Assembly: GCA_964479045.1 (NCBI GenBank)
Contig: CAYZJI010000012.1
Coordinates: forward strand, 9,321-73,320
Reading direction: 5' to 3'
Origin: an uncultured Enterobacteriaceae bacterium
Lineage (GTDB): Bacteria > Pseudomonadota > Gammaproteobacteria > Eutrophobiales > Eutrophobiaceae
Length of the DNA stretch: 64,000 nucleotides
Shown one piece after another: positions 12,850 to 45,038 of the stretch. A program made the position numbers and the translations under genes. The notes beneath the pieces are model-generated. The model was not told the origin of the DNA, did no database searches, and saw nothing but the letters and a program-made list of their open reading frames with translations. The stretch's first letter is position 1; the number at the start of each line of letters is the position of its first letter.

Positions 12850-13122
12850 TCAGATCTTTCGGGGATTGTCAGCGCGCCTGATATAAAACTCGAACAGATT
12901 ACCGGACCCGGAGTATTTCACCAGTTCATGATCGGTCCGGGCACAATAGGCTTCGAAGTCAACCACAGAATGCGGATCCGTAGCCTGTACATATAATATT
13001 TGTCCGGGCTGCATCCGATTGAGGACGACCTTGGTCTTGAGTATCGGCAACGGACAGTTCAATCCCCGGGCATCCAGAGATTCATCTGCCTTGATTGTAC
13101 TGTCAGCCTGAGCCGTGTTCAC
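12850..13122 (-). CDS. tusA: TusA/SirA-family sulfur carrier
   Basis: LDARGLNCPLP and ATDPHS motifs. Confidence 0.85.
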   Translation of the reverse strand: MNTAQADSTIKADESLDARGLNCPLPILKTKVVLNRMQPGQILYVQATDPHSVVDFEAYCARTDHELVKYSGSGNLFEFYIRRADNPRKI

Positions 13123-13239: not shown

Positions 13240-15216
13240 TTAGTATTCAAGACTGATACCCAGCATCACAGCACGGCCCGGCAGTGGCGCACGATCCTTG
13301 ATAAAGGAAGTGTGCCGTCGTGCGTCCTCATCGAGCAGGTTACTGGCACGTAAAAACAGTTCCCCGGAACCCGGCAGCTCACTGAAGCGGTATACAGCGC
13401 CGGTATTGAGGAGCACATAACCACCGGTTCCGGATTCAAGGCGGGCGAGATCGTCCTGTCCGAAAACATGGATGATATCCAGATCAAATTGCCAGTGACC
13501 CGGATCATAAATCAAACCGCCGCCGAGCCGTGCCGGGGAAATTCGCGGCAGATCATCACCGCCATCTCTTTCAGCGCGTACATAATCTCCAAACAACCGG
13601 AAATCGAGATTGCTGTTAAATGCATAGAGTGCCTCTGCTTCCGTGCCATAGAACAGGCTGTCTTCCTGCTGTATACCGGTCAGCAAGAGTTCGCCCGGAG
13701 CGGTCCCGGTCTCATCCACTTCATCCGCAATGCCATCAGCATTCCGATCAAGTTCATTGAGGAAAATATAATCCTGTATGTAATTCAGGAACAGGTTCAG
13801 TTTCCACGTCAGATGCCCGTTTTTCTTGTTGAAGCTGAGATCAATATTGTTTGCCGTTTCGGGTTCCAGCGCCGGATTGCCCATCTCGAATGTGCCAGTG
13901 GCGAGGTGTGGTCCGTTGGCAAAGAGTTCTTCTTCAGACGGTATGCGTTCCGATCGCGACAGTGATAACGCAAGAGAATAGCCCGGAATAAAATGCCAGT
14001 GCGTCCCGCCGGCCACGCTCCATGCGTTGTGATTGACTTCCGGTTGTCCCGAAGTACGGGTCGGCTCATACTGTTTGTATTCGTAGCGTCCGCCCAGTTC
14101 GAAATGCCAGTCACCATGATCGGATTCCTCTAGTATAAACAGGGCAAAGCCTTTGCTTTTAACTGGCTGAATGAACGCTTCGTCACCTGCAGCGGCGAAA
14201 CTGCGCAGATTGAATTGTGTGCCAAGTGAACCGGACCAGTTTGCAAGGGGAGAGTGTTGAAGTTCCATACGTCCCTCCCACTCGGCATTATCAAACGTTG
14301 TTCCCGGCGGCTCACCCGGGCCTTCAAATTCGATATGCTGATAATTATTGTGCGCGGCGCGGATACGTAAATGCTGAAATCCGGGAAGGGGACTATCCAG
14401 CATGGCCGCAAAATCAATTCGATCCTGTTCGCTTTCAATGAAAGGCAATTCATCCGGTTCCGCCGGATCGAGCGGGATTTCATGCATGGTTTCCAGACGG
14501 CCATAGGAAAATCCGAAAAAACCGCGATCAAAATGATAAGCGGCACCGAGATTCACATCTTCACTGTCATAGGCGCTATTGCGGATTTTGCCGTCAGCTG
14601 CATGGTAATCATGCGCGTTGCGGATCGTGGCATCAAAATGCAGGGCCATATCTTCAAGCCCGCCATCGGCGCGCAGAGACACCAGTTTCTCCTGATTAAC
14701 CGTGTTGTAGCGGCTGTCCAGTTTTGCTTTGAAATTTTCCGGAACATATTCCGGGATGCGTCCGGTGACGAGATTCACCAGACCGCCGGAAGCCCCGCTG
14801 CCGTAAAGCAGGGTTGAAGGGCCACGAAAGATTTCAATCTGATCTGCGCCAAAGGATTCAAGGGCCACCGGATGATCGACACTGATGGTGGACATATCCA
14901 GCGTCCCGATTCCACCCTGCAGCACCTGCACCCGCGAACCTCCCAGACCGCGAATGATCGGGCGGCTGGCAAACGGTCCGAAACCAGTGCCGGTCACCCC
15001 GGGTTGCAGGCTGAGTGTTTCTCCGATGCTGGCAGTTTTGGCTTTCTCCAGTGCTTCATCACGCAACAGACTGATGGGCTGTGCCACATGTTCAAGGCTG
15101 TCGAGTCCCGGTGGCCGTGCGGTGACCGTCATCTGCTCCAGTGTTTCCGCCTCTGCAGCACAGGTTGCGGTGTAAATAATGTTCAGCGCCAGAGTGCTGA
15201 TGAAAAAAAATTTCAT
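13240..15216 (-). CDS. znuD: TonB-dependent receptor, ZnuD-like zinc uptake
   Basis: Plug motifs (SRPIIRGLGGSRV, IEIFRGPSTLLYGSGA), SEEELFANGPHLAT, RHTSFIKD, aromatic C-terminus; divergent from zur-znuACB across a Zur box. Confidence 0.82.
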   Translation of the reverse strand: MKFFFISTLALNIIYTATCAAEAETLEQMTVTARPPGLDSLEHVAQPISLLRDEALEKAKTASIGETLSLQPGVTGTGFGPFASRPIIRGLGGSRVQVLQGGIGTLDMSTISVDHPVALESFGADQIEIFRGPSTLLYGSGASGGLVNLVTGRIPEYVPENFKAKLDSRYNTVNQEKLVSLRADGGLEDMALHFDATIRNAHDYHAADGKIRNSAYDSEDVNLGAAYHFDRGFFGFSYGRLETMHEIPLDPAEPDELPFIESEQDRIDFAAMLDSPLPGFQHLRIRAAHNNYQHIEFEGPGEPPGTTFDNAEWEGRMELQHSPLANWSGSLGTQFNLRSFAAAGDEAFIQPVKSKGFALFILEESDHGDWHFELGGRYEYKQYEPTRTSGQPEVNHNAWSVAGGTHWHFIPGYSLALSLSRSERIPSEEELFANGPHLATGTFEMGNPALEPETANNIDLSFNKKNGHLTWKLNLFLNYIQDYIFLNELDRNADGIADEVDETGTAPGELLLTGIQQEDSLFYGTEAEALYAFNSNLDFRLFGDYVRAERDGGDDLPRISPARLGGGLIYDPGHWQFDLDIIHVFGQDDLARLESGTGGYVLLNTGAVYRFSELPGSGELFLRASNLLDEDARRHTSFIKDRAPLPGRAVMLGISLEY

Positions 15217-15285
15217 AATGATCTCTCCGAATCGAGCCGGCCGTGCGAGAGACCGCACAATGCCGGCTTAAAAAAACAACCGATA

Positions 15286-15573
15286 TCAGTTAAGGAGAGT
15301 CAGGGGTGGGGCACGTATACCGTAGTGAACAGCAGGAACAGCCGGATAAACAAACCGTGTGATCGGAACATCGAACAGGAGCTCAGGAAGCGAAACTGCA
15401 TTTGCGGAAATATTTACTGCAGTTCCATGATGATGGTTCTGCAGTGTACAGACGTCACACCCGCCATCCTGTCCGGCCAGCACATGTTCTGTTGCATGCG
15501 CGAGGCCCAGCCACTGGCTCAAAACCAGCAACAGGGCCAGCGAGGTGGCCAAATGTGGGTATCGCAGACGCAT
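15286..15573 (-). CDS. DUF2946/CruR-like leader protein with CxxC-HHH and C-terminal RAPP
   Basis: N-terminal hydrophobic helix, CDVC..HHH, ends YGIRAPPLTLLN; directly upstream of the TonB receptor. Confidence 0.75.
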   Translation of the reverse strand: MRLRYPHLATSLALLLVLSQWLGLAHATEHVLAGQDGGCDVCTLQNHHHGTAVNISANAVSLPELLFDVPITRFVYPAVPAVHYGIRAPPLTLLN

Positions 15574-15578
15574 ATAAG

Positions 15579-15593
15579 TGTTATATTATAACA
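15579..15593. promoter_or_regulatory. Zur box
   Basis: Perfect 7-1-7 palindrome TGTTATA-T-TATAACA matching the gammaproteobacterial Zur consensus, between the divergent zinc genes. Confidence 0.92.
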
Positions 15594-15625
15594 TTACGTT
15601 CAGTTCAAGCGTTTAAGAGAATCTT

Positions 15626-16123
15626 ATGGCACACAATCGAGTATTAATTCCCTTTCAAAAAAGGGGGCATGCCCACAAGCATTGCCGTGATTCAGCTTTG
15701 TCAGCTGCAGAACAGACCTGTGATGCGCGTGGTGTGCGTCTCACCAAACTGCGTCGCCGGGTACTGGAATTGATCTGGAGCAGTCATGAACCGGTCAAGG
15801 CGTATGACCTGCTGAACAAACTGCGTGATGAACATGCCGGTTCAGCACCGCCGACGGTTTACCGGGCGCTGGATTTTTTGCAGGCCGAGGGAATGGTGCA
15901 CAAAATCGAGTCACTGAATGCCTATGTCGGTTGCGGTGATCCACACGAAAGCCACAACAGCCAGTTTCTGATTTGTGACAGTTGTGGGGCAGTTGCGGAA
16001 ATGGACAATGCAGAAGTGACCCAGTTACTCGCCGACAAGGCGCGCCAGTTGGGGTTTCGTATTGATTACCAGATGATTGAAATCAAGGGACTCTGTTCCA
16101 ACTGTTCGGGCACGGACCGCTGA
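15626..16123 (+). CDS. zur: Zinc uptake regulator (Fur family)
   Basis: RLTKLRRRVLEL, PPTVYRALDFL, HKIESLNAYVGC and two CxxC motifs; heads znuACB. Confidence 0.92.
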   Translation: MAHNRVLIPFQKRGHAHKHCRDSALSAAEQTCDARGVRLTKLRRRVLELIWSSHEPVKAYDLLNKLRDEHAGSAPPTVYRALDFLQAEGMVHKIESLNAYVGCGDPHESHNSQFLICDSCGAVAEMDNAEVTQLLADKARQLGFRIDYQMIEIKGLCSNCSGTDR

Positions 16124-16135
16124 AGGGACTCTTCC

Positions 16136-17011
16136 ATGCGTCGTGCTCTGTTTACTATGGTGATTGTCAGTGTGTTGTGTCTGGCCGTTGTTCCGGCTCA
16201 CGCAACCGGTGCACTTGATGTATTTGTCAGTATCTTGCCGCAGAAATATCTGCTTGAAAGGATCGGCGGTGAACAGGTACGGGTGCAGGTCATGGTGAAG
16301 CCCGGACTGAATCCCGAAACCTACGAGCCGACGCCCAGACAGATGGCAGCCTTGAGCCGCGCTGATCTGTATTTCCGTATCGCTGTGCCGTTTGAGGAGA
16401 TCTGGATTGGCAAAATCCATGATCAGAATCCAATGCTGAAAATAATTGAATGCTGTGCTGAATTAACGATCACCGATCCGCCCCCGTATGATCCCGTGAC
16501 AGGCACGGAAAGTAATATCGGAGTGGATGCCCATGTGTGGACCAGTCCGCACAATGCCAGAGTGCTGGCGCGGATTGTCCTGGAAGCCCTGACGGAAGCT
16601 GATCCGGAGCATGCGGAAAATTATCAGGTTAATTTTCACAGGTTGATAATGGATCTGGATGAACTTGATCATTTCATACAGGAGACACTTTCAGAGGTTG
16701 ATAACCGTTATTTGCTGGTGGCGCACCCGTCCTGGGGACACTTCGCAGCACAGTATGGATTGACCCAGATCGCGATAGAACGGCATGGGACCGAGGCGCG
16801 TGCCCGGCAGCTTGCGCACTTGATTGAATTTGCAAAATCAGAGCGTATTCAGTACATCTACTTGCAAAAACAGTTTGATTCTCCTGCTGCCAGAATGCTG
16901 GCCGATGCCATCGAGGCGAAACTGATAGAGCTGGATCCGCTGGCGGAAAATTATATTGAAAATCTCCGGCAGGTCGCACTCAGCATCGCGAACGCGGAAA
17001 ACCAGCCATGA
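16136..17011 (+). CDS. znuA: Zinc ABC transporter substrate-binding protein
   Basis: PETYEP, DAHVWTSP, HPSWGHFA and LDPLA cluster A-I motifs; signal peptide. Confidence 0.88.
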   Translation: MRRALFTMVIVSVLCLAVVPAHATGALDVFVSILPQKYLLERIGGEQVRVQVMVKPGLNPETYEPTPRQMAALSRADLYFRIAVPFEEIWIGKIHDQNPMLKIIECCAELTITDPPPYDPVTGTESNIGVDAHVWTSPHNARVLARIVLEALTEADPEHAENYQVNFHRLIMDLDELDHFIQETLSEVDNRYLLVAHPSWGHFAAQYGLTQIAIERHGTEARARQLAHLIEFAKSERIQYIYLQKQFDSPAARMLADAIEAKLIELDPLAENYIENLRQVALSIANAENQP

Positions 17012-17742
17012 CGGCGGCAATTGAAATCAACCAAGTCAATTTTGCCTACGATCGTGAACCGGTGCTGAGTGATATTTACCTCACGGTCACGGCGGAAGAG
17101 TTTCTCGGTGTCATTGGTCCGAATGCAGGCGGAAAAAGCACCTTGATCAAATTGATACTGGGTCTGTTAACGCCGGCGGCCGGCAGCATACGGGTGCTGG
17201 GTAAAACACCGGCGCAGGCCCGCGCGCAGATAGGTTATGTGCCACAGCATCCCACATTTTCACGCCGCGATTTTCCCATCGATGTACGCGACACTGTGTT
17301 GATGGGCCGGTTGGGGAAAGTCTCGCGCCTTGCCGGATATTCGAAGGAAGATCGGATAATCGCGGATAATGCCTTGCGCGCCGTGGAAATCCATGACATC
17401 GCCAGACGGCCGATCGGTGAATTGTCCGGCGGACAGTTACAGCGTGTGCTGATTGCGCGTGCGCTGGCCTGTCAGCCGGAAATCCTGATTCTGGATGAGC
17501 CTACCGCCAATATTGATATGCGTGCTGAGGAAGATATTTTCGGTTTGCTGAAACACTACAACGACCACATGACCATTATAGTGGTGTCGCATGATATTGG
17601 TTTCATCTCCGGTTATGTCGATCGGGTCGCGTGTCTGAACCGCAGTCTGGTCTGCCATGCCACGGATGCGATCAGCGGTAAAACCATTGAGGAGTTGTAT
17701 GGAGCGCCGGTCAGGATGATCCACCACCATCATAGTCATTGA
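17008..17742 (+). CDS. znuC: Zinc ABC transporter ATPase
   Basis: GPNAGGKS, LSGGQLQR, LDEPT; His-rich tail. Confidence 0.9.
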   Translation: MTAAIEINQVNFAYDREPVLSDIYLTVTAEEFLGVIGPNAGGKSTLIKLILGLLTPAAGSIRVLGKTPAQARAQIGYVPQHPTFSRRDFPIDVRDTVLMGRLGKVSRLAGYSKEDRIIADNALRAVEIHDIARRPIGELSGGQLQRVLIARALACQPEILILDEPTANIDMRAEEDIFGLLKHYNDHMTIIVVSHDIGFISGYVDRVACLNRSLVCHATDAISGKTIEELYGAPVRMIHHHHSH

Positions 17743-18581
17743 ATCCCATGTTCGAATTTTTTACGGAAATTTTCAGCTATCGCTTTATGCAGCATGCATT
17801 GCTGGCCTGTTTGCTGGCGAGTATCGGCTGCGGGATCATGGGCACGTATGTGGTGGTCAAACGGATCGGTTTCATGGCGGGCGGTATTGCCCACTCGGTA
17901 CTCGCCGGAATGGGTATCGCTTATTTCCTGGGTTCATCACCATTATTCGGCGCCATGTTTGCGGCACTGGTTTCCGGCATCATGATCGGCTGGATCAATC
18001 TGCATTGGCGGGAACATGAGGATATCCTGATTGCTGCGTTCTGGTCAGTGGGCATGGCCATAGGTGTGATCTTTATTTCCCGCAGCGAGGGCTATAACAT
18101 CGATTTGATGAGTTATCTGTTTGGAAACATTCTGCTGGTATCACAGCAGGATTTATGGCTGATGTTATTACTGGATATAGTGATCGCATTGCTGGTAGCC
18201 ATGTTTTACCGGCAGTTTCTGGCGGCAGCGTTTGATGAGGAGTTTGCGCGCCTGCGTGGCGTGAATGTCGAGTTTTACTACATGCTGCTGTTGTGCATGG
18301 TGGCATTGACCGTGGTGCTGCTGATCCAGGTTGTGGGGCTGATTCTGGTGCTGGCCCTGCTGATATTGCCGGCTGCCAGTGCCGCGCAGTTTGTCAGTTC
18401 CATCGGCCGTATGATGTTGCTGGCAGTCGTTTTCTGTGCGCTGATCACAACGACCGGACTGATCCTGTCGTATGAGCCGGATCTGCCATCCGGATCCACC
18501 ATCATCCTGCTTGCCGGAATTTTTTATCTGTTCTCTATTCTCGGGCGCAGAGTCCTGAAGCGGATCTATAACGGCCGCTGA
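17739..18581 (+). CDS. znuB: Zinc ABC transporter permease
   Basis: GGIAHSVLAG, SYLFGNIL and FDEEFA motifs. Confidence 0.9.
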   Translation: MNPMFEFFTEIFSYRFMQHALLACLLASIGCGIMGTYVVVKRIGFMAGGIAHSVLAGMGIAYFLGSSPLFGAMFAALVSGIMIGWINLHWREHEDILIAAFWSVGMAIGVIFISRSEGYNIDLMSYLFGNILLVSQQDLWLMLLLDIVIALLVAMFYRQFLAAAFDEEFARLRGVNVEFYYMLLLCMVALTVVLLIQVVGLILVLALLILPAASAAQFVSSIGRMMLLAVVFCALITTTGLILSYEPDLPSGSTIILLAGIFYLFSILGRRVLKRIYNGR

Positions 18582-42069: not shown

Positions 42070-42330
42070 TCAGATTCCCATATTGCTCAACGTCACCATG
42101 ATGTCATTCATGATGGCGGTGGCGCGGGGATGTTCCGCCTCAAAGTGTTGAATCGATTCCCTGAGATTGTCGATTAACCCCTCGTTTTCATCTTCCGGAT
42201 TGTCAAGTTTGATTTCCAGTTCACTGATAAGCTGGTTCAGACGTGACCTTGATTCTGAATCATCAGAGGCCAGATGATTTATTTCATCACGCAGGCGTTC
42301 AAGAGAGTCTTGTAGTTTCTTTCTGTACAT
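42070..42330 (-). CDS. DUF4404-like small protein
   Basis: Ends FEAEHPRATAIMNDIMVTLSNMGI; start 42330, because the track start lies inside the tRNA. Confidence 0.85.
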   Translation of the reverse strand: MYRKKLQDSLERLRDEINHLASDDSESRSRLNQLISELEIKLDNPEDENEGLIDNLRESIQHFEAEHPRATAIMNDIMVTLSNMGI

Positions 42331-42355
42331 ACTGATTAAAGTTTTAGCACATATT

Positions 42356-42666
42356 TGGTGGGCCCGGTAGGACTTGAACCTACGACCCATGGATTCTCTT
42401 GTCCCAGCATTACTGATGGGGGAGGACTATCTCATCACCCTCAACCGGATTGTTAGGGCGCGGGACGCTCGTGCCTGTTATCAAGAACACTGAAGTTCTC
42501 AGGTAGTCTCTGCACCTTCCGGAAGTGTACTTCCGGCTTGGCTCAGGATTGCCATCAGTTATACTGATATGGTTTCCCTGAATTCATCCCGTTCATTTCA
42601 TATCTTTCGATATGAACGCACCTTCTTTGATGAGTCCACTGCTCTAACCAACTGAGCTACAGGCCC
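42356..42666 (-). tRNA. ileX: tRNA-Ile2 (CAT, lysidine type) interrupted by a group I intron; exon 1 = 42666-42630, exon 2 = 42395-42356
   Basis: Spliced GGGCCTGTAGCTCAGTTGGTTAGAGCAGTGGACTCAT|AATCCATGGGTCGTAGGTTCAAGTCCTACCGGGCCCACCA folds as a 77-nt cloverleaf; position after rpoD matches ileX synteny. Confidence 0.9.
42396..42629 (-). ncRNA. Group I self-splicing intron, 234 nt, no ORF (IC3-like)
   Basis: Inserted after the CAT anticodon; 5' exon ends in U, intron ends in G; P (AAUUCAGGGAA), Q (AAUCCUGAGCC), R (GUGCAGAGACUA) and S (GAUAGUCC) elements; P7 GACUA/UAGUC; P3 GGGAUG/CGUCCC. Confidence 0.93.
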
Positions 42667-42766: not shown

Positions 42767-43138
42767 ATGAAAAAATGTGTAAATTGCCAAAAAGGTCTCC
42801 GGGGAAGACAAACCAAATTTTGTTGTCGCAAATGCAAAAACATATACAACAATCTTAATTACCAATCGTATCTTGCACAGCAAAAACGCGGTAAGGATAG
42901 AAAGCTGGAGTTGATAAAACTCAAAGGCGGCAAGTGTGCACGATGTGGATACGATAAGAATTTTTCTGCATTGGAGTTTCATCATCCAGCGCCGAATGAA
43001 AAGGAATTTCAACTGGATTTGAGGTCGCTTTCCAATCGGAAATGGGACGTAATAATAAATGAAGCAAAGGAGTGCTTGTTACTTTGTTCAAATTGTCATG
43101 CTGAACTACATCATCCGGAATGCAGGTTAAGAGCATAA
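42767..43138 (+). CDS. Free-standing HNH endonuclease with N-terminal zinc-finger-like module
   Basis: CVNC..KFCCRKC N-terminus; CARCGY...ALEFHH...KECLLLCSNCHAELHH core; about 40% GC by hand count. Confidence 0.85.
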   Translation: MKKCVNCQKGLRGRQTKFCCRKCKNIYNNLNYQSYLAQQKRGKDRKLELIKLKGGKCARCGYDKNFSALEFHHPAPNEKEFQLDLRSLSNRKWDVIINEAKECLLLCSNCHAELHHPECRLRA

Positions 43139-43152
43139 CCTGCGTTTCTGAC

Positions 43153-43187
43153 AAACCTTCCTGGACTTAATCCAGGAAGGTTTTCAG
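43153..43187 (+). terminator. 13-bp perfect hairpin with the rpoD stop codon in the loop; likely terminator between HNH gene and rpoD
   Basis: AAACCTTCCTGGA-CTTAA-TCCAGGAAGGTTT followed by TCAGTT on the + strand. Confidence 0.65.
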
Positions 43188-45038
43188 TTGCTCGGAACGC
43201 GAGGGGTGACGCAGTTTGCGTAACGCTTTGGCTTCAATCTGACGAATACGCTCACGGGTCACATCAAACTGTTTGCCGACTTCTTCCAGAGTGTGATCGG
43301 TATTCATGTCGATACCGAAACGCATACGCAGCACTTTGGCTTCACGTGGAGTAAGGCCTTCCAGTGCTTCACGGGTGGTGCGACGCAGACCTTCAATCCC
43401 GGCCGAATCACTGGGCGCGAGTATGTTCAGGTCTTCAATGAAATCACCCAGATGTGAATCTTCATCATCACCAATCGGGGTTTCCATTGAGATCGGTTCT
43501 TTGGCGATCTTCAAGACCTTGCGGATCTTCTCCTCCGGCATTTCCATTTTTTCTGCCAGTTCTTCCGGTGTCGGTTCGCGGCCCTTTTCCTGCAGGATCT
43601 GGCGTGAGATACGATTGAGTTTGTTGATGGTCTCGATCATATGCACTGGTATACGTATGGTGCGGGCCTGATCGGCGATGGAACGCGTAATGGCCTGACG
43701 TATCCACCAGGTTGCGTAGGTTGAGAATTTATAACCGCGCCGGTATTCGAACTTGTCTACGGCTTTCATCAGGCCGATGTTTCCCTCCTGGATCAGATCA
43801 AGGAACAACAGACCGCGGTTGGTATATTTTTTGGCAATGGAGATCACCAGACGCAGATTGGCTTCCACCATTTCCTTCTTGGCGCGACGTGCTTTGGCTT
43901 CGCCGATGGAAATCCGGCGGTTGATTTCCTTGATGTCACTGATACTCAGGTCATCAACAAATTTTGCCGCCAGTGCTTCCTGGATGCGAATGATATCTTC
44001 CTGCAGTTCCTTGATGTTTTTTGCATAAGGTTTGCTGCGGGATTTGGCCAGAGTCTTGGTCCATTGCGTATTGATTTCATTCCCTGGGAACAGGGTTATG
44101 AATTCCTTGCGCGGCATTTTGCCCAGCTTGACACAAAGATTCATGATGTCGCGCTCGGCGCCACGAATCACCTCTATCAAGTGCCGCACGTTATTGGTCA
44201 GAATGTCAATAAACTTGGGGGCCAGCCGCAAACTCAGAAAAGTCTGGCAGAGTTCATTCTGCAGTTCCCGGGATTTTTTATGTGCGCGGCCATTGCGCTT
44301 GATGGCCCGTACCAGCTTGGTGTTGATTTTTTCAATGGCTTCGATGTGCGCACGAACTTCCTCCGGATCGAGCATGGCTTCCGGTTCTTCTTCACTCTCG
44401 CCGGATTCGTTTTCTTCGTCATCATCATTATCATTACCAGCACTTGTGGCCAGACGTGGCTCACCATCAGCATCTACCGGCATATGGCCGCTGTCCGGAT
44501 ATTCCTCGGTGTCATTGAAACCCAGAATGATGTCACTGAGCTTGATTTCTTCTCTGGCAATCGAATGATAGTTTTGCAGCAGGGTATCGATGGTGCCCGG
44601 ATAACAGGCGAGCGCTTCCAGTACCTGGTTGATGCCTTCCTCAATGCGCTTGGCAATCTTGATTTCGCCTTCACGGGTGAGCAGATCAACCGTGCCCATC
44701 TCGCGCATATACATGCGTACCGGATCAGTAGTGCGGCCAAATTCGCTTTCGACACTGGCCAGTGCTGCTGCCGCTTCAGCCGCTGCTTCTTCATCCGGAC
44801 CTTCAGTGCTGTCGGTCATGATGATTTCAAGATCGGGCGGGGATTCATACACAGTGATCCCCATGTCATTAATCATGTTAATGATGTCTTCGATCTGCTC
44901 TGGATCGACAATATCGTCCGGCAGATGGTCATTGACCTCGTGATAGGTCAGGAAGCCCTGCTCCTTACCTTTGGCGATCAGTACCTTCAGTTGCGACTGG
45001 TCGTCTTCTTGCTCAATCTGCTCAATATTATTTTCCAT
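43167..45038 (-). CDS. rpoD: RNA polymerase primary sigma factor
   Basis: Regions 1.1-4: [57 protein letters not shown]. Confidence 0.99.

Follow-up and report, generated by a model that had tools for sequence, protein, structure and literature searches.

A candidate CruR-like leader peptide ahead of a ZnuD-type receptor gene in the Zur regulon, with a covarying helix over the receptor's Shine-Dalgarno sequence

In a 64,000-nucleotide stretch of DNA from an uncultured Enterobacteriaceae bacterium (assembly GCA_964479045.1, contig CAYZJI010000012.1; the whole stretch is referred to here as the window), a 95-codon open reading frame (ORF) at 15286-15573 on the reverse strand lies between the divergent regulator gene zur and the gene for a ZnuD-type TonB-dependent receptor. 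We find that the Shine-Dalgarno (SD) sequence of the receptor gene is predicted to pair in an RNA helix whose position is held relative to a conserved RAPP motif near the end of this leader ORF and whose strands covary among related loci; helix and covariation support an output at the level of translation in silico. To judge from its sequence and by analogy, the leader peptide very probably works like CruR and CutF. For the composite arrangement, a Zur-repressed unit of leader and ZnuD-type receptor with a second, post-transcriptional switch residing in the leader, we consider the chances to be about even. Metal-sensing arrest peptides (CruR, CutF) have so far been copper-responsive only, and according to Roy et al. 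no riboswitch is known for Cu or Zn (PMC9426467).

Results

A leader ORF with the architecture of CruR

The leader ORF, a CruR-like arrest-peptide candidate identified through its homologues and a sub-threshold DUF2946 match, encodes the 95-residue product MRLRYPHLATSLALLLVLSQWLGLAHATEHVLAGQDGGCDVCTLQNHHHGTAVNISANAVSLPELLFDVPITRFVYPAVPAVHYGIRAPPLTLLN (ORF listing and translation) and ends in a TGA stop codon at 15286-15288; this and all further coordinates of the leader, the leader-receptor gap and the receptor refer to the reverse strand. A hydrophobic helix, ATSLALLLVLSQWLGLA (codons 9-25, 15499-15549), is predicted from the sequence and from AlphaFold2 to serve in export, and as read from the sequence the 17-residue stretch has R2 and R4 before it and A25-H26-A27 after it. 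It is followed by an HxxxH motif (H26-A-T-E-H30, codons 26-30, 15484-15498) that is near-invariant in the family alignment, by a CxxC motif conserved in the family (C39-D-V-C42, codons 39-42, 15448-15459) and, after 44 intervening residues, by the predicted arrest site RAPP (R87-A-P-P90, codons 87-90, 15304-15315), beyond which a C-terminal tail of five residues remains. By analogy with the CruR toeprint (PMC12992588), Pro89 (15307-15309) is predicted to occupy the P site and Pro90 the A site. Six-frame translation of the window yields R[AG]PP only twice, and the leader's copy is the sole one in a sizeable ORF. AlphaFold2, run on the family alignment, gave a model with a mean pLDDT of 82.6 in which helices at residues 6-33 and 40-48 are separated by a turn, CxxC sits at the N-terminus of the second helix and the remainder of the peptide is unstructured. 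A preliminary description of this DNA had placed a 95-residue ORF here with CDVC, HHH and RAPP at codons 87-90 (15315-15304), and each of these was found exactly there; the HHH is present at residues 47-49 but is not conserved in relatives, and we rejected it as a functional motif.

A word-indexed search recovered seven relatives of the leader and, together with a profile search, the total rose to 19, with 35-48 % identity to the leader of the window. Throughout these 19 close relatives the blocks LSQWLxLAHATEH, CxxCTLQ and IRAPP are kept nearly letter for letter, H26 and H30 are invariant, and the 45-residue linker drifts; the leader ORF is accordingly a real gene. An exhaustive hidden Markov model search of 1.84 billion representatives returned 350 clusters at E<=1e-3, nearly all of them 90-100 aa long. 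When motifs were counted in 165 family sequences, CxxC was present in 159, R[AG]PP in 153 and an HxxxH positioned 4-14 residues before CxxC in 149, and the spacing from CxxC to RAPP was 44 residues in 102 sequences, 45 in 34, 43 in nine and 46 in two. Column conservation was assessed in an alignment of 143 sequences, where R87, P89 and P90 are invariant and Q20, H26, H30, C39 and C42 are each at least 90 % conserved at a mean column identity of only 15 %, as would be expected if the peptide is regulatory and its linker drifts. The tail after RAPP varies between one and eight residues in the family. Public records list the family proteins as 'hypothetical', or the gene is often not called at all.

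Two close relatives depart from this picture. P0012 (locus L015, 3199-3210) carries RASP for RAPP, yet has the strongest of the anti-SD helices described below (-20.4 kcal/mol), and P0014 is missing the CxxC segment; both oddities could be assembly errors or decayed copies. Scanning metagenomes with the degenerate pattern QWLxLAHAxEH returned mostly the same clade again, with the addition of loci L021 and L030, and a tblastn search with one family member against plasmids gave nothing meaningful.

The only family match of the leader is Pfam DUF2946 (PF11162), at 17.8 bits (E=0.006), short of the gathering score of 23.7 and therefore below threshold; it covers leader residues 25-90 and profile positions 50-117. 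The likeness to CruR and DUF2946 claimed in the preliminary description consequently holds for the architecture (predicted export helix, CxxC, 44-residue spacer, RAPP, first gene) and falls short in the Pfam score. Roy et al. name CxxC, RAPP and a semi-conserved Cys as the only hallmarks of DUF2946 (PMC9426467), and the leader carries the CxxC (C39DVC42) as well as the RAPP near the stop codon (R87APP90), with a spacing of 44 residues that falls within one to two of the approximately 45 seen in CruR-type peptides. As in the copper operons headed by DUF2946 genes, the leader is the first gene and a TonB receptor gene follows, but the receptor is ZnuD-type and the next gene TusA-like. No copper gene among those looked for (PCuAC, Sco, CopC, YcnI, PepSY_TM, OprC, CrtA) was found in any sampled locus. 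Judged on these features, the family is an unannotated, sub-threshold satellite of DUF2946 whose architecture is exactly that which Roy et al. describe for CruR, and the HxxxH, which sets it apart from CruR by published description, may mark a ZnuD-coupled branch.

A covarying helix closes over the receptor's Shine-Dalgarno sequence

The gap between leader and receptor measures exactly 69 nt in the window, up to the receptor ATG at 15216, and 64-78 nt in the 14 closest loci, where it is strongly structured. In the minimum free energy fold of RNA that starts at codon 82 and reaches into the receptor gene (-41.9 kcal/mol, z=-3.35), the anti-SD sequence UGACUCUCC (15294-15302), which lies inside codons 91-94, forms the 5' strand of a closing helix, and GGAGAGAUCA (15219-15228), which holds the receptor SD, forms the 3' strand; the duplex energy of this anti-SD:SD pairing is -12.8 kcal/mol. 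The closing helix encloses an internal G+C-rich hairpin (GCCGGC..GUGCG-loop-CGCAC..GCCGGC, 15236-15267) that folds with -22.5 kcal/mol, and homologues have a hairpin at the same place. Helix positions are counted from the first base of the first Pro codon, predicted to be the P-site codon, and on this count the anti-SD strand occupies nt +8 to +16.

When each junction was folded separately, the SD zone paired with nt +8 to +20 in 14 of 15 unique loci. The stop codon of the leader falls at +10 (RAPPL-stop), +16 or +22 depending on the locus, so that the helix's 5' strand falls within the coding sequence of certain loci (LTLLN, QYPHS, RHPRF, QPPSI) and outside it elsewhere, while the distance of the helix is held. 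Such constancy indicates a constraint on the RNA relative to the predicted arrest site and points away from a constraint on the peptide or the stop codon.

The two strands also change together. Compensatory pairs of 5' and 3' strands among the loci are UCCCCA(C) with (G)UGGGGA, AUAUCCCCA with UGGGGAUAU, UCCCCGUU with AACGGGGA, AACUCC-UGUA with UUAC-UGGAGUU, CAACUCCUCUA with UAGAGGAGU, and CUCUCC with GGAGAG, and the SD closing helix is the only consensus helix returned by RNAalifold. Covariation was tested on 18 junctions in a plain, unfitted MAFFT alignment, in which 87 % of the cells of helix 1 are paired and four of its six pairs have changed on both sides. For both helices taken together 80.6 % of cells are paired, compared to 35-53 % with the 3' partners slid, and the covariation score of 0.332 stands against at most 0.187, with none of 500 shuffles reaching as high a value. 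After model-based realignment, the paired fraction of helix 1 was 90 % with five of six pairs changed. A covariance model found no second copy of the helix element in the window, and no Rfam family matches the leader region.

An arrested ribosome covers the mRNA to about +15/+16, as is known from toeprinting. The SD is thus sequestered in a helix whose 5' strand falls within the footprint of a ribosome arrested at the predicted site, and since the footprint spans that strand, the anatomy predicts an output of the SecM/MifM/ApdP type.

Several further traits of this junction were recorded. After the hairpin, a U-rich tract (4-6 U in 8 nt) leads into the SD in L001 (6329-6343), L005, L007 and L008 and likewise in L010, L013, L017 and L018, reminiscent of a pause site or a weak terminator of the intrinsic type. 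In the window the hairpin is much stronger, yet no such tract follows it (15229-15235; 2 U in 8), and a terminator scan predicted none in the leader-receptor gap. An attenuator model, in which an A-run would pair with a U-rich hairpin loop as in L001 and L005, was dropped, as neither L007 and L008 nor the window has the A-run. The leader RNA is C-rich and G-poor over its 3' third (15286-15400), with C/G counts per 60 nt of 21/12 and 19/10, and the corresponding values are 22/8 in L001 and 24/8 in L007; this C richness may be a reflection of the Thr/Pro/Ser/Ala-rich linker.

The leader lies between a Zur box and a ZnuD-type receptor gene

A Zur box with the palindrome TGTTATAATATAACA (15579-15593) is located between the divergent zur gene and the leader, with the 15-mer TGTTATAWTATAACA placed 5 nt from the leader ATG. 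Its core matches the 64 kb once only, and perfectly, in a search that tolerated up to two mismatches and in which 0.05 matches would be expected. Both distances given in the preliminary description, 69 nt to the receptor and 5 nt to the Zur box, proved exact. A Zur box with 0 mismatches precedes the leader in 13 of 18 loci and additionally in L022, L023 and L027, and the box of L015 has one mismatch. The box lies 19-28 nt from the leader start in the relatives, or 9 nt in L014 if measured to the annotated upstream ATG; the 5-nt distance is peculiar to the window.

The leader ORF has no recognisable SD sequence of its own, and most of its relatives lack one too. A sigma-70 promoter scan called no promoter for the leader, and a hand-read TTGAAC-17 nt-TATAAC arrangement (15574-15610, reverse strand) is therefore only a guess, given that the scan did not call the TTGAAC/TATAAC pair. 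If it were real, transcription would start at or beside the A of the leader ATG, and the mRNA would be leaderless or near-leaderless.

On the forward strand, zur (15626-16123) encodes a Fur-family regulator matching Pfam FUR and the NCBIfam Zur model NF008646 (E=1.3e-39; 135.7 bits, where the cut-off is 167), and it is followed by znuA-znuC-znuB (16136-18581; Pfam ZnuA at E=4e-58, and ORF listing). The same layout, with zur-znuACB divergent from leader, receptor and tusA, recurs in every close-relative locus that has enough flank. His-rich segments occur in Zur, in an N-terminal extension (KRGHAHKH; 15626-15700, forward strand) that precedes the part aligned to the Zur model, and in ZnuC (17008-17742, forward strand), as the tail MIHHHHSH.

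The receptor gene (13240-15216) encodes 658 residues and begins at the ATG at 15216, 6 nt downstream of GGAGAG; homologues begin at the same Met. Pfam recognises a plug and a TonB_dep_Rec_b-barrel domain, and the best NCBIfam model is ZnuD NF038289 at 421.8 bits and E=6e-126, below its 950-bit cut-off, so that the receptor is best classed as ZnuD-type and not as an equivalog of neisserial ZnuD. The closest solved relative in the PDB is neisserial ZnuD (4rdr, E=9.4e-71), with the next match at 1e-10; OprC scored 2.5e-6 and the CrtA/BfrG crystal structure 9rvq 5.4e-4 over the plug domain only (PDB codes for the CrtA/BfrG structures were taken from PMC12914433). TIGR01778 scored 1e-15. These values bear out the earlier assignment of the receptor to zinc and not to copper. 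CrtA orthologues are 707-911 aa long and usually have a PepSY_TM gene next, whereas a TusA-like gene follows the receptor of the window. This TusA-family gene (12850-13122, reverse strand; Pfam E=5.7e-21), beyond which response-regulator and OsmC genes are found, stands after the receptor in each Zur-box clade locus whose sequence reaches far enough.

More distant members of the leader family, at L010/L011, L012, L016, L021, L030 and L031, also have a ZnuD-type receptor downstream, with zur-znuACB not adjoining, and their receptors, full-length where available, share 39-51 % identity with that of the window. Among the loci sampled, the leader family travels with receptors that class as ZnuD-type, not with copper receptors. 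No gammaproteobacterial Zur-box core was found within 150 nt in L010, L012, L016, L021 and L030 (at least five mismatches), and in L031 no Zur box is visible by eye upstream. On the loci compared, the Zur link is demonstrated only for the clade including the window, and the six distant loci may have no metal input other than the leader.

Elsewhere in the window, Rfam identified a full-length group I intron (RF00028, 42403-42639, reverse strand) with 80.4 bits against a gathering score of 50 and E=7.6e-19. It sits between rpoD (43167-45038, reverse strand) and a 106-aa ORF (42070-42390, reverse strand), and it is adjoined by a Cys/His-rich ORF (42767-43138, forward strand) that looks like an HNH endonuclease. 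ARAGORN found no tRNA at the intron site.

Discussion

A model for control of the receptor by the leader

In the mechanism that we propose, the departure of Zur from its box would allow the leader to be transcribed and translated, and the N-terminal helix would bring the nascent chain to the Sec translocon. The ribosome would arrest at R87-A-P-P90 when Pro89 occupies the P site and Pro90-tRNA the A site, and would thereby cover nt +8 to +16 (UGACUCUCC), which otherwise pair with the SD region (GGAGAGAUCA). During arrest the SD would be free and the receptor made; following release and termination the helix would re-close and receptor translation would stop, and the 3' third of the leader, C-rich and G-poor, would then be bared as well and could contribute polarity through Rho, as in CruR. 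Release would be triggered when the nascent chain captures metal via H26, H30, C39 and C42, a plausible His2Cys2 site by its conservation pattern, of which C42 would sit 44 residues from the arrest site. In the regulon context the metal is most likely Zn(II). We infer the releasing effect of metal capture from the presence of an uptake gene and from the CruR analogy, and the arrest, the identity of the metal, the sensing compartment and the sign of the response are likewise inferred. A conserved, covarying helix at a fixed distance from RAPP argues for an output of the SecM/CutF type, in which the stall opens the SD, and not for Rho only; a Rho or pausing layer of the CruR type may coexist with the helix.

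A narrower version of this proposal holds that the leader is a natural nascent-chain zinc sensor, whose Sec-engaged His2Cys2 site would bind extracytoplasmic Zn(II) during translation, such that folding or pulling frees the ribosome at RAPP and the anti-SD shuts the znuD ribosome-binding site. This reading can be likened to engineered zinc-finger/SecM force-sensor experiments, and we hold it to be possible, at well below an even chance. The translation-level zinc layer suggested in the preliminary description has accordingly fared differently in its two parts: the translational part is supported in silico by the covarying SD helix, and zinc as the sensed metal gains no such support, as relatives without a Zur box keep the His2Cys2 set equally well.

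A number of observations weigh against the model. The DUF2946 score of the window leader is sub-threshold, and only 37 of the 143 family members reach E<=0.01; one relative, L015, encodes RASP in place of RAPP, and in another, L018, the anti-SD is degraded (-5.7 kcal/mol). The helix shuffle test performed locus by locus is weak, with 3-17 % of shuffles doing as well, in part because the CCN CCN Pro codons can themselves pair with the SD; as this test is not decisive, the case for the helix rests on its positional constancy and covariation. Moreover, any ribosome that reaches the stop codon would open the helix transiently and provide some coupling without arrest. With regard to the metal, CxxC is a classic Cu(I) ligand, and H26, H30, C39 and C42 are equally conserved in relatives for which no Zur box was found, so the motif is no pointer to zinc in particular. 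Copper is the metal linked to every published family member. CruR acts through Rho, reportedly senses cytoplasmic Cu and does not need its signal peptide (PMC9426467), and in CutF the sign is opposite, as metal prolongs the stall (PMC9973294).

Alternative explanations

One alternative is the CruR mechanism proper, in which stalled and queued ribosomes mask a Rut site in the leader, release by metal leads to Rho termination ahead of the receptor gene and the SD helix is secondary; under pure Rho control, however, a covarying anti-SD:SD pairing kept at one distance from RAPP would have no role. Such a mechanism would draw on the C-rich, G-poor 3' third of the leader, which resembles the 'C>G bubble' Rut of cruR (PMC9426467, PMC12360218), although its composition may simply reflect the Thr/Pro/Ser/Ala-rich linker, and on the U-rich tract after the hairpin in most homologues, a possible RNA-polymerase pause or termination point that is missing from the window, where no terminator is predicted in the gap either. 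The gap itself, at 64-78 nt in the 14 closest loci, is structured and compares with 162 nt in B. pertussis, and we regard this explanation as unlikely. An equally unlikely alternative in our estimation leaves the switch intact and replaces the sensed metal with copper or another thiophilic metal, so that Zur would supply the zinc input and the leader would shut a broad-specificity ZnuD-type pore under toxic metal. It accords with the CxxC motif and with the copper link of CruR, CutF, CopL and the Pseudomonas and Acinetobacter DUF2946-oprC operons, as well as with the relatives that combine the same H/H/C/C set and a ZnuD-type receptor with no Zur box. Set against this are the lack of any copper gene in the sampled loci, the ZnuD-type receptor in all of them, and the near-invariant HxxxH, which produces a His2Cys2 set typical of Zn(II) sites and which is not among the DUF2946 hallmarks named by Roy et al. 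(only CxxC, RAPP and the semi-conserved Cys).

The sign of the response could also be that of CutF, a DUF2946-type exported peptide with an SD-shielding stem (PMC9973294): Sec pulling would release the arrest and make OFF the default, and metal in the SecY vestibule would prolong the stall and turn the receptor ON when there is extracytoplasmic metal to import. The leader has a putative Sec-type N-terminus, and translocation force releases the RAPP peptides that monitor Sec and YidC, but an uptake receptor induced by the presence of metal would be unusual for a Zur-repressed gene, the RAPP of CruR arrests strongly alone whereas the proline motif of CutF does not (PMC12992588, PMC9973294), and CruR, the closest relative standing before a receptor, has the opposite sign. 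We find this version highly improbable. Slightly less probable still is that the ORF codes for a small metal-binding protein with a function of its own, exported or anchored in the membrane and acting, for instance, as a chaperone or partner of the receptor, with RAPP and helix reflecting only ordinary translational coupling. The confident AlphaFold2 helix-turn-helix at residues 6-48 would suit such a protein, as would the LSQWLxLAHATEH block, which with its polar Q20 and W21 within a hydrophobic helix is unusually conserved for a signal peptide. A linker of 45 residues that is almost unconserved yet fixed in length speaks against a protein function, as do the counter-selection of RAPP/RGPP in proteomes except in arrest peptides (PMC12992588), the failure of the family to be annotated or often even called as a gene, and the behaviour of CruR and CutF, which are undetectable and rapidly degraded (PMC9426467, PMC9973294).

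Significance

If the proposed unit of Zur-repressed leader and receptor works as outlined, nascent-peptide metal sensing would extend to zinc uptake, in one clade nested in the Zur regulon, and zinc homeostasis would gain a rapid layer of control at translation, which could report on a compartment other than Zur's. The unit would furthermore join the sensor module of CruR to an SD-unmasking output of the SecM/CutF type. Should the zinc-sensor version hold, the leader would be the first post-transcriptional sensor for zinc uptake, reading periplasmic zinc beside the cytoplasmic reading of Zur, and it would define a ZnuD-coupled family of about 350 sequence clusters. The system is compact, with two motifs and one helix in about 360 nt, and is directly testable. 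ZnuD-type receptors in pathogens are zinc-piracy systems and vaccine antigens, and an unrecognised control element before such receptors would be of practical interest; no named pathogen is among the sources of the loci compared here.

Comparison with known systems

The closest parallel is CruR (Bp2923) of Bordetella pertussis, a member of DUF2946/PF11162 (Roy et al. 2022, PMC9426467) with an export signal, a CxxC, a 45-residue spacer kept within one to two residues and a RAPP three residues from the C-terminus (PMC9426467), which arrests E. coli ribosomes in the PURE system, the two Pro codons then occupying the P and A sites (PMC12992588). Both leaders head an operon with a TonB-dependent receptor gene and share the CxxC, spacer of about 45 residues, RAPP and C-rich 3' region, along with an N-terminal export signal that is predicted for the window, and the logic expected for both is that metal releases the arrest and the uptake gene is shut off. 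The peptide of the window is shorter, however (95 aa compared to 145 aa in CruR), and, comparing CruR by description, carries the extra near-invariant HxxxH. Its receptor is ZnuD-type instead of CrtA with no PepSY_TM gene after it, its promoter region has a Zur box where the CruR papers mention neither zinc nor Zur, and a 69-nt gap with an SD-sequestering helix takes the place of the 162 nt and Rho-dependent termination of CruR.

CutF of Rhodobacter capsulatus (PMC9973294) is a DUF2946-type, Sec-exported, metal-sensing leader, in which C-terminal stalling unfolds a stem-loop shielding the SD of the next gene. It differs in having a CxxxC and a weak proline-rich motif in place of CxxC and RAPP, and its target is a detoxifying multicopper oxidase, its metal is copper and it has no link to Zur; metal prolongs its stalling, opposite to the sign proposed for the window. 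SecM, MifM, VemP, ApdA and ApdP similarly combine an export signal with a C-terminal arrest motif, which is RAPP in ApdA and ApdP (PMC7897499, PMC10951233, PMC10987492), and their arrested ribosomes melt a helix that sequesters a downstream SD. These peptides control the Sec/YidC machinery and report translocation, and they contain neither CxxC nor HxxxH, whereas the gene after the leader in the window encodes a TonB-dependent receptor and not a Sec or YidC component.

The class of RAPP/RGPP upstream ORFs surveyed in 2025 (PMC12992588) resembles the leader in its signal sequence, predicted for the leader, and C-terminal RAPP/RGPP and in its location upstream of Gram-negative TonB receptors; the survey groups these ORFs under metal/copper homeostasis and does not mention zinc, Zur, ZnuD or an SD helix. 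A connection to zinc exists in CC2720 of Caulobacter and CzcI of Cupriavidus, which are DUF2946-type first genes of zinc-related czc operons (PMC4176598, PMC9973294), and the Caulobacter DUF2946 ORF heads the Zur-activated czrCBA efflux operon with a Zur site (PMC4176598). In contrast to the leader of the window, these belong to efflux operons that are Zur-activated, not repressed, no arrest mechanism has been proposed for them, and CzcI is without a C-terminal proline motif. Full-text literature searches returned no paper joining ZnuD with CruR or with an upstream ORF. Compared with these systems, what appears to be new here, as far as the sequences tell, is a CruR-type sensor with an added HxxxH, its coupling to a ZnuD-type receptor, its embedding in the Zur regulon within one clade, and a predicted SD-unmasking output.

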